The notes beneath the pieces were generated by a model. That model had not been told where the DNA came from, did no database searches, and saw nothing but the letters and a program-made list of their open reading frames with translations. A stretch of 64,000 nt of DNA, taken from the NCBI GenBank assembly GCA_048938105.1, contig JBHLMN010000011.1, positions 143,709-207,708 on the forward strand, written 5' to 3'. The translations under genes and the position numbers were made by a program. Numbering within the stretch: the stretch's first letter is position 1; each line of letters opens with the position of its first letter. The stretch comes from Promethearchaeota archaeon (GTDB taxonomy: Archaea; Asgardarchaeota; Heimdallarchaeia; Hodarchaeales; Hodarchaeaceae). Below, one piece after another: positions 41,739 to 55,082 of the stretch.

Positions 41739-42305
41739 ATGGAATTACTAAAAATTATCCTGATAGGAGATGGGTCAGTGGGAAAAACCTCAATCCGTGA
41801 ACGTTATCTAGGACAGGGGTTTCCCATGCAATATTTACCTACATTAGGAGCAGATTTTTCAGTAAAAGATGAGATAATCGATGGGGAAAAGATAAGCTTC
41901 CAAATCTGGGATCTTGCAGGGCAACCTGTCTTTGAGACGATCAGAAAGATGTACTATCGAGGCGCAAGAGGTGCTTTCATTGTATGTGATGTTAGTAATC
42001 CTGAATCAGTGATGAATATACATAATTGGGTAGATGAATTGTGGAGAAATAATGGGCATGGGCCAATTCCATTTGTGATTCTAGGAAACAAGATAGACCT
42101 AAGATACACTGGAAAGTACTGTATACCAGATCAAACGTTACAAGGAATAGCTAGAGGAATAACAATAACAATAGGGGAAGCATTACAGTTTAAGGTGACC
42201 TATTTACCTACTAGTGCTAAAACAGGAGAAAATATCACTCAGGCGTTCAAACAGCTAGGAATGCAAGTAGCATCACACAAAATGTATCATTCACAATATG
42301 CATAA
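41739..42305 (+). CDS. Rab-like small GTPase
   Basis: GDGSVGKT, YLPTLG, WDLAGQ, YYRGA, NKID, TSAK. Confidence 0.95.
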   Translation: MELLKIILIGDGSVGKTSIRERYLGQGFPMQYLPTLGADFSVKDEIIDGEKISFQIWDLAGQPVFETIRKMYYRGARGAFIVCDVSNPESVMNIHNWVDELWRNNGHGPIPFVILGNKIDLRYTGKYCIPDQTLQGIARGITITIGEALQFKVTYLPTSAKTGENITQAFKQLGMQVASHKMYHSQYA

Positions 42306-46727: not shown

Positions 46728-48785
46728 ATGACCTTCAAGAGCACAAAAAATCAATACTTAAAATTAATTATTCTTTTATTTATTTTTACTTCGATTTTTC
46801 AATTTATAACCTCCGCTAATCACCCGATTACAAAAAATTATTATGCGTCAGATCTAGGGGTTCGAACTGATCTGAAATTATTTTCAAATAAAGCTACTTC
46901 AAATTCTAATCAATGGACGATTATGGCAATTGTTAATGCTGAAGCGATATTTGGAGAACATGCTGCTTTGGATTGTTTACAAGAACTTGAAGATGGCTTT
47001 ATACTCGGTTCAGGTATTGAAGTTGTTGCTTTAGTTGATCGTATCCCTGGTTATGACAGTTCAAATGGTAATTGGACAAACTCGCGCTATTATCATATTG
47101 TTCCAGATAATGACACAAGAGTAATTAGTTCCGAGCTCATTCAGGAATACAATGAATTAAACCTTGGTAATCCTAATACTTACAGAAATTTTGTACTTTG
47201 GGCTCAAAGTACATATCCTGCTGAAAAATATGCTCTCACCTATATCGGCCATGGTGGTGCGGTAAGTGGCTTTAGTTTTGATATTTCTAACCAGGATCAT
47301 CTAACTCTCGATGAATTTCAGCAAGCAATGTCTGGCCTCTATGTGGATGTTGTTGTTCTTGATTCATGTAAAATGGGTACTCTTGAACTGGCCTATGAAT
47401 CTCGTACATTCACAGATTATATTGTATTTTCCGAGCAATTTTCTGTAACGGAAGGCCTTGATTACAAAGCTTTTATTGAAGAATTATGTAACAAACCTTC
47501 AATGGAACCTTTAGAATTAGCAGAAATTATAGCTCGTACATCTCTGGAATGGTACACATGGAAATGGGATCTTACACATTCAGTGGTAAATTGCTCTGCA
47601 CTTACACCATTTGTTAATGAACTGTCAAAACTTTCAGTCGAATTAAACAATCTCCTTCCACAAGAAATAACTAGAATAGCAGATATTAGATTATCCGCAT
47701 ATTCACTTGATCATTCTTACTTAGATTTAGGATCATTTCTAAATACCCTCCATTACAATTTTAGCAATAATATATTGATTCAGGATCTCACACAATCATT
47801 AATTGAGCTTTATGATGATATTATTCTATTCAATTATGTAGATGCTTATGCTCAAAACGCTACAGGATTAACCATTTTCTATCCGCAAGATGCTAAGTCA
47901 TTAACGAACATATTTGATTTATCCAGCTATATGAATGCAACAAATTTCTTAGATTTTGATTCTCTAGATTTCCTTAGAGATTGTCTCTGGGATGAATTTT
48001 TGTATAAATATTTACTAAATGCTCCATTAGTAAAAGAACAATTTGTACCAATTGTTAACATTGAGCCGGAAACTCCTATCAATGTCGATATCTCCCCTGA
48101 ATATTCCTCGAGAAAATACAAAATCGAAATCAATACTCCCACTGCTTATCATTTTACTCTAGATGTACAAGATGGTGATCCTAGAATGACCGTCGAAAAG
48201 TCTACTTCAGGTGGACATAGCCTAGGACACCTAGGATATCTGTTTTCCGATGTGCAAAATCCTGAACAAGATATATCTGAAGATATTGTTCATTGGTTTG
48301 AAACAGGTTCTTACATAATAGAGATACAGAGTTGGACTCCATTTGCAAATGGAACTTTATTCGTGAAACAAGAGCCAATACAAAATTTAACCCTAGATGT
48401 AACAATCAAGGGTGAATTCCCTCCTAGAAGAGCAGTTACTCCTCCTATTAAAACAATATATAATTATTATATGATAATGTTTGATGGAGGTAGTTATGAG
48501 CTACTATTAGATATTTCTGATCACGGCCTTTTACATGTTAAAATGTGGGACCAAACAAGATCATCTTTAAAGAAGGAGTTCTATGGAAATGAGGGGGAAG
48601 ATTTTCTGTATCCTTTTACTCTGGACGATTCAGAAATACTTCTGCTGGAATTTGCATGTTATGAATGGACAGGTTCATATGAATTAAGTGTAATAAAAAC
48701 AAAAAGGCCTATATCTATTAATTACTCATTTATTGCAGTTCTAGTATGTTTAGGCATCGTTTCACTTATAAGGAAACAAAGATAA
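46728..48785 (+). CDS. Clostripain-family (C11) cysteine peptidase, surface anchored
   Basis: Signal peptide; WTIMA, ELNLGNP, YPAEKYAL..IGHGGA (His), LDSCKMGTLE (Cys); C-terminal beta domains, TM + RKQR. Confidence 0.9.
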   Translation: MTFKSTKNQYLKLIILLFIFTSIFQFITSANHPITKNYYASDLGVRTDLKLFSNKATSNSNQWTIMAIVNAEAIFGEHAALDCLQELEDGFILGSGIEVVALVDRIPGYDSSNGNWTNSRYYHIVPDNDTRVISSELIQEYNELNLGNPNTYRNFVLWAQSTYPAEKYALTYIGHGGAVSGFSFDISNQDHLTLDEFQQAMSGLYVDVVVLDSCKMGTLELAYESRTFTDYIVFSEQFSVTEGLDYKAFIEELCNKPSMEPLELAEIIARTSLEWYTWKWDLTHSVVNCSALTPFVNELSKLSVELNNLLPQEITRIADIRLSAYSLDHSYLDLGSFLNTLHYNFSNNILIQDLTQSLIELYDDIILFNYVDAYAQNATGLTIFYPQDAKSLTNIFDLSSYMNATNFLDFDSLDFLRDCLWDEFLYKYLLNAPLVKEQFVPIVNIEPETPINVDISPEYSSRKYKIEINTPTAYHFTLDVQDGDPRMTVEKSTSGGHSLGHLGYLFSDVQNPEQDISEDIVHWFETGSYIIEIQSWTPFANGTLFVKQEPIQNLTLDVTIKGEFPPRRAVTPPIKTIYNYYMIMFDGGSYELLLDISDHGLLHVKMWDQTRSSLKKEFYGNEGEDFLYPFTLDDSEILLLEFACYEWTGSYELSVIKTKRPISINYSFIAVLVCLGIVSLIRKQR

Positions 48786-48840
48786 ATTTATAGACTAACG
48801 GTAACATAAAATATAAATCAGCAGTGATTAATGAGAAAAA

Positions 48841-49182
48841 ATGGAAAATCAAAATATGGATCAGGACATAAGCTATAAAGAACGGCTATTCTGTGAATTG
48901 ATCCTTCGTCAAAGTGGGGCAGCTCGGTTTTCAAGGATTGCAGCCGATACTTTAGGAAAGATCTTGAAACGAGATTTTAACTTTAAAGAATTCCCTTCTG
49001 TGATTATAAAAAAAGATCCAGAAACAGGAATAAGTTTTGGAAGACTAGAAGATGCCGAGGTTGAAATTGCACAAGTAGCTACAAAGATTGCCAAAAAAGC
49101 TGTTAATTATGCCCAGCAAAAGGGACGAAGAACAGTAAAGGTTTCGGATATTGAAACAGTTGCCTCAGAGGTAAAAAAATAA
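48841..49182 (+). CDS. Archaeal histone-fold protein with a 34-aa insertion
   Basis: ILRQSGAARFSRIAADTLGKIL-[34 aa]-AQVATKIAKKAVNYAQQKGRRTVKVSDI matches the HMf-type GA.R.S..A...L and A...GR.T.K..DI patterns. Confidence 0.82.
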   Translation: MENQNMDQDISYKERLFCELILRQSGAARFSRIAADTLGKILKRDFNFKEFPSVIIKKDPETGISFGRLEDAEVEIAQVATKIAKKAVNYAQQKGRRTVKVSDIETVASEVKK

Positions 49183-49419
49183 TAAATGATGAACTTGAGT
49201 TTTGATCCTAATGAAGATGGAAAGCTTTACTTTCGCTTTATAAATTCTGAATGTCTTCAAACCTTAGTTAATAGACATTATCCGTATCAATATCAGTATT
49301 TCTATAGACTTAACCGACGACTTGTTCCGAAAAGAATCTGATACAGGAATAATTTTTATATCATTGATGTCTTATTATATACTAGCTATTCTAAAGTATT
49401 AAAAATTAATCTATTAAGA

Positions 49420-50727
49420 GTGGATTATGTGAAAGTAGCAATTATCGGATCGGGAATAGGTGGGTGTTCTGCAGCATACTTTTTAAAGGAGCTAATACCT
49501 GAATCTATTGATATTACTATTTTTGAGAGTAATAACAAAATTGGAGGACGTTTACTTAACAGAAAAATAAACCCAGTAGTAGTAGAATTAGGAGGAACTT
49601 TCTTTCATTCAGTGAATTTAAATGTGCAATATCTTGTAGAAAAGCTTTCCTTAGAGAAAGAAGAGTTCATTTTACCTAAAATAGGGGTCTGGAATGGATC
49701 AAAATTCATCTATAAATCTAGTTCCACGACTCTAGTAACTAATCTCAAATTATTACTTCGGTATCGAAGAAGTGCGCTAAATTTATTGAGTTTATTAAAG
49801 AGAGCAAAGCAAGAAATATTAAGTGTTTATGCAAATGATAGATTAGACAAGCATTATAAAACGTGTGAGGAATTATTTGGATCCCCTTTCCTTCTAGATT
49901 GTACCAGAAAAACCTTGGAAGAAGTTCTCAATGAAAATGGAATATCTTCAAAACTAATTAAAGAAATAATAGAACCAGGTACTAGGTATATTTATCATCA
50001 AGACATCGACATTGATGGTTTTGCAGGGATTACGACGATAATAGCTTCTGACGGTTCTCCGATTTATAAAATAAAAAATGGAAATGTTCAACTTAATAAA
50101 GCTCTTCTAAAATCAGCAAATGCTAATGTTAAATTAAATCAAAGAATTGTTAAAATAAATAGAATCGAAAATAAAGCTTTCTTATTAACAACACAACAAG
50201 GGGACTCAGAAGAATATGATGCGGTTATTATAGCAGCACCCTTAGAACAAGCAGATATAGAATTTGAGAATTTAGCTATACCTGATTTAGAGAAAAGAGA
50301 ATTTCGTAAAATCTATATAAAGCTCATTGAAGGCCAATTAAATCCAGAGTATTTTGGAATGACTAATGTTTTAGAGATACCTGAATTGTTACTCACTACT
50401 GCTGATTTTACAGGCCCTTTCGATAATCTTGAAACTTTAGGGAAGTCTAAAGCAGGAAACTTTGTGTATAATCTCTTCTCTCCTCGTCCTATCCCAGAGG
50501 ATTTAGTCGAAAAAATGTTTAGAGAATGTGTAATTGAAGAAGATTTCCACTGGAAATATGCCCATCCAATACCCAAACCAGCTACCCAGAATTTTCAACC
50601 GTTTTTGTTAGAGACTCGGCTTTTTTATATCAATACTGTGGAGTCCGTAGCTTCAACAATGGAGACAATGACTGTAGCTGCCAAAAATGCTGTTTTATTA
50701 TTAAAGAAAGAGTTGGAAAAAGAATAA
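49420..50727 (+). CDS. Prenylcysteine oxidase/lyase (PCYOX1-like) FAD-dependent enzyme
   Basis: KVAIIGSGIGGCSAAYFL, ELGGTFFHSVNLN, IGVWNG, KLLLRY, YDAVIIAAPL, FYINTVESVASTMETMTVAAKNAVLL. Confidence 0.85.
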   Translation: MDYVKVAIIGSGIGGCSAAYFLKELIPESIDITIFESNNKIGGRLLNRKINPVVVELGGTFFHSVNLNVQYLVEKLSLEKEEFILPKIGVWNGSKFIYKSSSTTLVTNLKLLLRYRRSALNLLSLLKRAKQEILSVYANDRLDKHYKTCEELFGSPFLLDCTRKTLEEVLNENGISSKLIKEIIEPGTRYIYHQDIDIDGFAGITTIIASDGSPIYKIKNGNVQLNKALLKSANANVKLNQRIVKINRIENKAFLLTTQQGDSEEYDAVIIAAPLEQADIEFENLAIPDLEKREFRKIYIKLIEGQLNPEYFGMTNVLEIPELLLTTADFTGPFDNLETLGKSKAGNFVYNLFSPRPIPEDLVEKMFRECVIEEDFHWKYAHPIPKPATQNFQPFLLETRLFYINTVESVASTMETMTVAAKNAVLLLKKELEKE

Positions 50728-53910: not shown

Positions 53911-54140
53911 GACGATTACTTAGAGTAGAGCTGTTCGACTTCGGGTTGGTTCATTCACATCGTGAACCCTAAGAGATCCGTGAGAAACAGTCTGCGGTAC
54001 CGATGATGGTACGGCTAGAACAATTCAGCTGACCGTCGGCTTTAGATCTCTGTGTGCTTTCTATGAAAATTATACCAATTCCGCTCCGTTAGTTTCCACG
54101 ATTCATCTACCGATCATAGACCGATGGTTTTCTCACGGAC
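53869..54140 (-). ncRNA. Unidentified GC-rich structured RNA-like or non-autonomous element, long copy
   Basis: Several hairpins, an 11-bp long-range inverted repeat (53977-53987 / 54129-54139), G-U pairs favouring the minus strand, and a partial second copy at 60937-61021. Confidence 0.55.
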
Positions 54141-55082
54141 TACTATAAATTTCGATTGCAAATTTAAGATGAAATAGATACCAATTATCCAAAAAGAATA
54201 AGGGATTATAACTATTAATCCTGTCTCGATTCCCCATGAATTACCAATTAACCATATCGGGCCATTTAGAGTTGTTTGCGCACCAAAAATACTGTCAGAC
54301 ACCCATCCAGAAAGATTGTATAATTCTGTTGCGAAGAGATCATGTGCAAAATGTAAGCAAATTGGATAAATCAATGACTGAGTTTTTAAATATGCATACG
54401 CTAAGATTACGCCGGGAAATAACAGCATTATAAATAAGATCACTAAATTCACCCCTTCAGCTTCATTTGACAATAGATGTACCGCTGAAAAAAGGATTGC
54501 ACTCACAATAATTGCATATTTTTCATTAACAGCTTCCGAAATTTTAGTAACTAAGAAACCACGAAAAGTTAATTCTTCAAAGAATGCAACAAATAAATTA
54601 AGAGCGAGAGCAATAAAAATAAGGCTTGATAGAGATAAGAAATCAGTATTATTCCATTTCCAAGTCTCTACTACAAGAAAATTCATATTAGTTTCGATCA
54701 AAAACACGCTACTTAATCCCACAAAAGAAACACCAACACCAACAAAAACTAGTATGGGAATCTCTTTTTTCTTATAGAGATGAAAATATTCTCTCAAATG
54801 CTTATTCACAATTAATTTAATTGCTAAAAACCAAAACAAAAGCGAAAATATGGCAATAAATCCTCGTGTAAAAATCGGGTAGAAATAATATTCTAAAAGC
54901 AGGTTATTTATTATTTGTTCAAGTAATCTTCTTGTAAAAGAAGCAATTACACCAATTATCGCCTGTAACAAAAAATAGGTCATAAATAACAACAAAAAAA
55001 TGCCACAAATTACAAATGAACCCCTTAACGATTCAGATTTATACTCACGAATCCATATAACAACATTTTGCAGCTTACTCAT
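54114..55082 (-). CDS. CPBP (Abi / type II CAAX protease) intramembrane metalloprotease
   Basis: EELTFRG, FSAVH, SL..PICLHFAHD, GNSWGIETG. Confidence 0.92.
   Translation of the reverse strand: MSKLQNVVIWIREYKSESLRGSFVICGIFLLLFMTYFLLQAIIGVIASFTRRLLEQIINNLLLEYYFYPIFTRGFIAIFSLLFWFLAIKLIVNKHLREYFHLYKKKEIPILVFVGVGVSFVGLSSVFLIETNMNFLVVETWKWNNTDFLSLSSLIFIALALNLFVAFFEELTFRGFLVTKISEAVNEKYAIIVSAILFSAVHLLSNEAEGVNLVILFIMLLFPGVILAYAYLKTQSLIYPICLHFAHDLFATELYNLSGWVSDSIFGAQTTLNGPIWLIGNSWGIETGLIVIIPYSFWIIGIYFILNLQSKFIVVREKTIGL

Follow-up and report, generated by a model that had tools for sequence, protein, structure and literature searches.

The gene under study lies in a window of 64,000 nucleotides, the whole stretch of DNA that was analysed, and is carried on a 208-kb contig of a 5.85-Mb assembly. 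It occupies positions 48841–49182 of the + strand, where the open reading frame is intact, begins with ATG and encodes 113 amino acids followed by a stop codon (sequence and list of open reading frames). Assignment of the whole gene to a histone-fold protein is based on this reading frame, on a match to the Pfam archaeal histone family above its cut-off, on a split match to histones in the Protein Data Bank (PDB) and on 10 intact alleles. A putative TATA-like A/T-rich box, read from the sequence, is located 23–31 nt 5′ of the start codon (48810–48818, +). Homology between this genome and a second genome that carries the full gene (G050) spans only 48812 to the stop codon of the histone gene.

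The upstream neighbour (46728–48785, +) encodes a clostripain-family (peptidase C11) protein of 685 residues, in which a signal-like segment lies at the N terminus and a hydrophobic anchor at the C terminus. Other neighbours encode an MFS transporter, a Ras-family GTPase and a prenylcysteine-lyase homologue. No conserved neighbourhood or mobile context was detected around the histone gene, and the neighbours are ordinary accessory genes that differ between genomes. A 51-residue reading frame, which starts 4 nt past the histone stop codon (49186–49341, +; TAATAAATGATG) and has no significant match in Pfam (weakest E-value 0.28), can probably be dismissed as a gene: its DNA sequence is conserved neither in G050 nor in the congener G063, with homology either stopping at the stop codon or beginning at approximately 49300. 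Within 13 kb, the Ras-family small GTPase (41739–42305), the prenylcysteine-lyase homologue (49420–50727) and an Rce1-like CAAX-type protease (54114–55082) occur together; Rce1-like proteins in prokaryotes usually serve other roles. A prenylcysteine-lyase homologue with 92% identity is present in G063 (L038:2758-4065, contig C35) in a different neighbourhood and, because homology there starts only at approximately 49300, the histone gene and this neighbour were not inherited as a block.

The protein is a minor paralogue in its genome, which also encodes approximately nine canonical singlet histones, one doublet histone and two longer proteins that match the histone fold. The doublet comprises 142 residues (G000:C14:223649-224059, L007/L008). 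Also observed were a 376-residue protein with an N-terminal histone fold and an additional domain (G000:C2:52106-52267, L011) and a 90-residue variant with N- and C-terminal extensions (L004).

The 113-residue protein has a pI of 9.3 (10.2 for the core), and all its segments are given here on the + strand. The N-terminal tail is composed of residues 1–11 (48841–48873); it is short and acidic (net charge −3), as anticipated in the original prediction, is disordered in the AF2 model and differs in length among alleles. Helix α1 (residues 12–24, 48874–48912) is defined by the AF2 model and by alignment with the canonical histones of the genome. Loop L1 (residues 25–31, 48913–48933), which contains G26 and the sprocket arginine R29 in an R-F-S motif, is invariant in 11 sequences. 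The first half of α2, α2a (residues 32–42, 48934–48966), aligns without gaps to canonical α2 up to L42, and the second half, α2b (residues 77–93, 49069–49119), is delimited by the Pfam match, the split PDB match and the alignment. Between them lies the insert (residues 43–76, 48967–49068), located by the split PDB match, the alignments and the AF2 models. Loop L2 (residues 94–100, 49120–49140; K-G-R-R-T-V-K) carries the RKTV-type motif, including T98 of the R-T pair, as aligned with canonical histones, and helix α3 (residues 101–113, 49141–49179; alignment and AF2 model) contributes D103, the partner of R96 in the R-D clamp.

In the AF2 model, the ends of the insert lengthen both half-helices (residues 43–45 and 72–76), and residues 46–71 form a hydrophobic-rich loop that may contain a hairpin. 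A β-hairpin-like insert had been predicted from the letters alone, and strands do appear in one model, that of the orthologue P0004 (residues 59–61 and 69–71, equivalent to 55–57 and 65–67, approximately I55-K57 and S65-G67, in the window protein), although that model is of low confidence. The candidate hairpin is composed of residues 54–67 (49000–49041), with strands V-I-I-K-K and I-S-F-G flanking a D-P-E-T-G turn.

By sequence, the protein is a histone. The Pfam family PF00808 matches residues 78–106 only (24.8 bits against a cut-off of 21.4), and a phmmer search of the PDB yields a split match to the Pyrococcus histone HPhA (PDB entry 1KU5, E-value 6e-5), in which residues 20–43 correspond to HPhA residues 14–37 and residues 77–106 to HPhA residues 37–66. 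The split recurs with the Asgard histone HHoB; with both proteins, the N-terminal half aligns as a second stretch that is weak on its own. The split thus corresponds to 33–34 inserted residues and no loss of canonical ones. When the protein is aligned by MAFFT with seven canonical histones encoded in its own genome, to which it shows 29–40% identity, a single block of 34 gap columns opens. Insert-free Bathyarchaeia-type histones from metagenomes read LAKLL followed directly by EAYGAKIAKKAV, and the variant reads LGKIL, the insert and then AQVATKIAKKAV; from this register the insert is K43–I76 (nt 48967–49068). Residues 12–42 and 77–113 therefore constitute a match to archaeal HMf-type histones, interrupted by a single clean insertion in the middle of α2, and the proposal that removal of residues 43–76 restores a gap-free HMf-type sequence is borne out by these comparisons. 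In histones α2 is an uninterrupted helix of approximately 30 residues, which crosses the α2 of the partner chain in an interleaved dimer; here its sequence is broken after 11 residues by the 34 extra ones.

The DNA-contact signature of archaeal nucleosomal histones, as defined in the main text of PMC13260811, comprises the L1 ‘RV’ sprocket arginine, the L2 ‘RKTV’ motif, the R-T pair and the R-D clamp. These elements are present as R29-F30 (Phe standing in for Val), R96-R97-T98-V99 and D103, the last located seven residues past R96, and are invariant or nearly so among alleles; the R.S (R29-F30-S31) and GR.T.K..D (G95, R96, R97, T98 through D103) motifs noted at the outset are intact. The stacking glycine of L1 (G26) is kept, as is a basic residue (R23) at the position of HMfB K13. 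In the alignment, L20 occupies the position of HMfB R10, and Y90, Q93 and T106 occupy those of HMfB L46, H49 and L62, where residues of the dimer–dimer four-helix bundle are changed. We take HMfB L46 and L62 to be dimer–dimer interface residues. The combination found in hypernucleosome-forming histones, namely L46, H49 and L62 together with the α1 DNA contact R10, is absent from the variant. Residues 10, 19, 53 and 54 are DNA contacts and residue 49 is a capstone marker in the analysis of Stevens et al. (PMC7776873), who excluded histones with large insertions from modelling. The residue pattern fits a protein that would touch DNA through one L1–L2 site without polymerising.

The structure was predicted with AF2 from an alignment that included canonical histones (pLDDT 81, pTM 0.77). 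The model contains four helices (residues 12–24, 32–45, 72–93 and 101–112) with pLDDT above 90, connected in the middle by a low-confidence loop (residues 46–71; insert pLDDT approximately 55). Residues 29–30 of L1 and 98–99 of L2 are all β-bridge residues of the single chain, with isolated bridges also at residues 59 and 63; residues 29–30 are taken to pair with 98–99 within the chain. In an open histone chain, α2 separates L1 from L2, with one loop at each of its ends, and the two are unable to touch. Pairing of L1 with L2 in one chain would therefore mean that the chain is folded back.

Structural neighbours were identified with Foldseek and, among 48,161 chains, with VIA-align, and the two agree. 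The nearest are the lid domains of RuvBL proteins (Z-scores of 8.7 and 8.1, and r.m.s.d. of 2.7 and 2.1 Å over 75 and 72 residues), together with the N-domain of the DNA polymerase epsilon B subunit (Z-score 7.5, 75 of 75 residues), numerous further AAA+ lids, and doublet histones (Z-scores 7.2–7.9), all within the range of 7–9 that helical bundles can reach through a common arrangement. A single chain of HHoB, the canonical Asgard histone closest by sequence, superposes badly (TMq 0.27, r.m.s.d. 13 Å). The ESM Atlas model of the exact sequence (pTM 0.77) again has AAA+ lids and doublet histones as neighbours. By predicted shape, the protein thus resembles an AAA+ lid bundle. The original prediction had expected modelling to return a histone fold; the classical open fold was not obtained, and the two confident models instead break α2 into a closed bundle. 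For P0004, AF2 with an alignment of four orthologues only (pLDDT 52, pTM 0.45) keeps the four helices and lacks an L1–L2 bridge. Because orthologues alone do not give a confident closed form, that form leans on contacts contributed by canonical histones, in which they are intermolecular. The closed form comes from monomer-only predictions, and a predictor may satisfy such intermolecular contacts within one chain.

Our leading, though tentative, reading, to which we would give somewhat less than even weight, is that the insert acts as a long hinge by which the chain is un-swapped into a closed monomer with one DNA site, unable to propagate a polymer. The insert, placed mid-α2 at the junction of the two helix–strand–helix halves, would allow the chain to fold back on itself rather than pair with a second chain in an interleaved, domain-swapped dimer. 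The α1–L1–α2a half would pack on its own α2b–L2–α3 half and L1 would pair with its own L2, giving a closed four-helix bundle with AAA+ lid topology, the equivalent of one half of a histone dimer. One L1–L2 DNA-binding site (R29, R96/R97, T98 and D103) would remain in such a monomer, together with at most one dimer–dimer face; binding to DNA, or docking on a histone stack, would be open to it, but propagation of a hypernucleosome would not. The hydrophobic-rich insert, possibly as a hairpin, may cover the surface bared by the missing partner.

The closed monomer is favoured by the domain-swap hinge hypothesis and by an engineered insertion in the hinge of HMfB. Alva et al. (PMC1847821) proposed that the histone fold arose from an AAA+ C-domain by shortening of the hinge, which forced a three-dimensional domain swap, and state as a general rule of domain swapping that longer hinges favour closed monomers. 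As summarized in the review PMC8508939, placing Gly-Thr-Pro in the HMfB hinge abolished dimerization and gave a stable monomer with the properties of a four-helix bundle; in nature, according to the same review (2021), there is no extant monomeric histone. The natural insert at this junction is eleven times longer than the engineered one. The gene, its homology, the position and conservation of the insert and the retained motifs are established by the comparisons above; the closed monomer is deduced from the predictions and the engineered precedent, and any role on DNA or chromatin is putative. Against it, a hinge needs only a few residues, far fewer than 34, and an insert with conserved hydrophobic residues probably does more than link; moreover, either connectivity could give rise to the same globular dimer.

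The strongest competing explanation, which we consider possible but doubtful, is an open, swapped dimer, formed with a second copy or with a canonical paralogue, in which the halves of α2 remain roughly collinear and each chain extrudes a hairpin of 26–34 residues near the dimer centre. That hairpin would block gyre stacking, fill the interior of the superhelix or serve as a binding module on display. In favour of such a dimer, every core position of the histone fold is kept, as are the L1 and L2 motifs, and the insert, with its many conserved hydrophobic residues, may have the structure of a hairpin and be more than a hinge. The dependence of the closed form on canonical histones in the alignment also speaks for the open dimer, and the changes at the positions of HMfB 46, 49 and 62 fit a capstone-like variant. 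On the other side stand the closed forms given by two predictors with a pTM of 0.77, the loss of HMfB dimerization that, in the review’s summary, followed a hinge insertion of only three residues, and the rule that longer hinges favour closed monomers. The original prediction had envisaged a variant that caps or blocks stacking or displays a module. As an intact dimer this idea is disfavoured, both confident models being closed; capping survives in the form of a closed monomer, which would have one dimer–dimer face where a dimer has two.

The distribution of the gene is narrow. A word-indexed search of 5.8 billion proteins recovered three further clusters at 90% identity, which are 81–86% identical to the window protein. 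An exhaustive comparison by phmmer with 1.84 billion representatives at 50% identity recovered one cluster, the family’s own, and no donor protein family for the insert; its only other match, P0005, is a low-complexity repeat protein and was rejected as spurious both as a relative and as a source of the insert. Cluster look-up gives 11 sequences in all; 10 of them are intact, come from metagenome-assembled genomes of Heimdall-group Asgard archaea and fall into four 90%-identity clusters. The insert is exactly 34 residues long in 10 of 10 intact alleles, with no indel or stop anywhere; 18 of its positions are invariant and the changes are mostly conservative (V/M, I/V, D/E/N and E/D). Among whole genomes, searches of 21 species of the genus found the full gene in 2 and insert DNA in 3, and the full gene did not occur in the 378 other Asgard genomes searched; the same insert, a search for which in Asgard proteomes had been proposed, was thus found. 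Outside G050 and G063, the contigs recovered from JGI metagenomes and GTDB genomes carry canonical histones, all of them insert-free. Comparison of this genome with G050, a single pair, gives a dN/dS of 0.35 for the insert (4 synonymous and 6 non-synonymous changes) and 0.42 for the fold, with dS of approximately 0.21 throughout; values are 0.3–0.5, below 1 in every segment. Smith–Waterman comparison of the insert with the N-terminal half, the C-terminal half and the canonical histones gives scores no better than those of shuffles (P of approximately 0.1 or worse), and thus no sign of internal duplication as its origin.

The third genome, G063, retains a 109-nt stretch (contig C39, JBHLKY010000039.1; L016:1502-1610) that corresponds to 48968–49076 (+) of the window, shares 94% identity with the insert in each of the two full genes, and sits between unrelated genes without the histone halves. 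The one non-intact allele, P0011 (90 residues), contains the N-terminal half and the insert and continues past V79 into foreign sequence (IAQV, then IYNQCFC and a stop). Both share an identical 3′ junction, and G063 additionally lacks everything before K43, so that the G063 fragment is a remnant after two successive truncations and the gene is decaying in the G063 lineage. An insert-only mobile unit or donor locus in G063 was considered first and rejected in the light of P0011, which shares the junction yet keeps the N-terminal half. The 5′ breakpoint in G063 falls within approximately 3 nt of the insert boundary, which we regard, with some reservation, as a coincidence.

This patchy occurrence, the different neighbourhood in each genome, the truncated copies and the dN/dS of 0.3–0.5 would suit a young, dispensable paralogue under weak constraint, whose insertion would be a tolerated accident and which itself would do little or nothing and be on its way out. 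The patchiness, the decay in one lineage and a dN/dS only moderately below 1 likewise weigh against the closed monomer. We nevertheless judge dispensability an unlikely account of the gene, since ten alleles in four clusters remain open without indel or stop, dN/dS stays below 1 in every segment at a dS of approximately 0.21, the DNA-binding signature residues are invariant, and the fold signature is still kept at only 29–40% identity to the canonical paralogues.

Less probable still is a protein-binding rather than DNA-binding role in the manner of AAA+ lids. The structural neighbours of the models are such lids, the DNA-contact arginine of α1 and the polymerization residues are lost, and Alva et al. 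(PMC1847821) argue that the bridge ancestrally bound proteins. By sequence, the protein lies outside the lid families, with no match to the Pfam AAA_lid families at E-values up to 1, and its reading frame stands alone without a P-loop ATPase core. The complete and invariant L1/L2 signature of sprocket arginine, R-T pair and R-D clamp, the basic pI of protein and core, and the lack of a conserved partner gene nearby argue against this role.

Excision of the 102 nt from the mRNA as an in-frame intervening sequence, either an archaeal bulge–helix–bulge intron or another type, which would leave an ordinary histone of 79 residues as the mature protein, is suggested by a length divisible by three whose removal gives a gap-free histone, but is highly improbable: predicted RNA folds of the region do not stand out in either of two genomes (z-scores of −1.15 and −0.79) with no pairing of the ends in the minimum-free-energy folds, the best bulge–helix–bulge motif at the boundaries (3-nt bulges, 4-bp helix) scores 9/10 and is equalled by 30% of shuffles, the segment is single-copy in this genome, and it remains open at constant length in 10 alleles, with mostly conservative replacements and a dN/dS like that of its flanks. 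We conclude from these sequence comparisons that the insert is a translated insertion with nothing supporting splicing, in agreement with the preference originally expressed. The gene is a real, translated paralogue of archaeal nucleosomal histones, known from a small number of species within a single Heimdall-group Asgard genus.

Comparison with known proteins places the variant closest to HMf-type histones (HMfB, HPhA (PDB entry 1KU5), HHoB (PDB entry 9QV5); PF00808), which it resembles in both halves, in the L1 glycine, sprocket arginine, RKT-type L2, R-T pair and R-D clamp, and in basic charge. It differs from them in the 34-residue mid-α2 insert, in the lack of an N-terminal proline motif and in the changed equivalents of R10, L46, H49 and L62; HMf-type histones have an extended open fold, whereas the variant is predicted to be otherwise. 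The engineered monomeric HMfB carrying Gly-Thr-Pro (Hadjithomas and Moudrianakis 2011, as summarized in PMC8508939) is expected to be a closed four-helix-bundle monomer, as proposed here for the variant; in the terms of that summary, its insert is artificial and three residues long, whereas the variant carries a natural, conserved insert of 34 residues, part of which is probably structured. The two confident models have the topology of AAA+ lids (RuvBL1/2, FtsH, Rpt, ORC/Cdc6, Lon and Clp) and of the N-domain of the polymerase epsilon B subunit, in which two helix–strand–helix units of one chain pack into a four-helix bundle with one β-bridge. Unlike the lids, the variant is a stand-alone protein of 113 residues without an ATPase domain and is derived secondarily from a histone rather than from an ATPase.

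Doublet histones (Methanopyrus kandleri (PDB entry 1F1E), Marseilleviridae (PDB entry 7N8N) and the SOS histone domain) have a complete L1–L2 pair in one chain, as is predicted for the variant; their two full folds in approximately 140–200 residues mimic a whole dimer, whereas the one fold of the variant would mimic half. The capstones of Methanobacteriales (Stevens et al. 2020, PMC7776873) are also minor paralogues in multi-histone genomes, have a changed residue 49 and are predicted to stop oligomer extension. Capstones are dimers of ordinary length with an acidic or hydrophobic residue 49, whereas the variant has Gln at this position and its proposed mechanism is a changed chain topology. 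The five archaeal histone clusters described in the main text of PMC13260811 comprise basic or acidic singlets, doublets, miniatures and quadruplets. The words ‘insert’ and ‘insertion’ are absent from the main texts of that paper and of Schwab et al. 2024 (PMC11390915), which describe no class with an α2 insertion; within these texts, the variant is uncatalogued, as had been claimed.

The histone fold is the classic example of an evolutionarily fixed domain swap, and direct support for this has so far come only from an engineered hinge insertion. If the closed monomer is correct, a natural, conserved hinge insertion would let the domain-swap hypothesis be tested on a real protein, from the archaeal group closest to eukaryotes. 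The fullest form of this reading, in which the protein is the first natural monomeric histone, a reversed three-dimensional domain swap and an obligate half-dimer cap that terminates the chains of Asgard hypernucleosomes, is conceivable but should be held with more doubt than belief. The narrow and patchy distribution of the gene, which is dispensable in some species, limits its general importance. Should the protein still form a swapped dimer, it would remain a variant absent from these catalogues, with a structured loop exposed at the dimer centre; as a closed monomer, it would represent a new way to limit histone polymerization, through chain topology rather than through interface residues.
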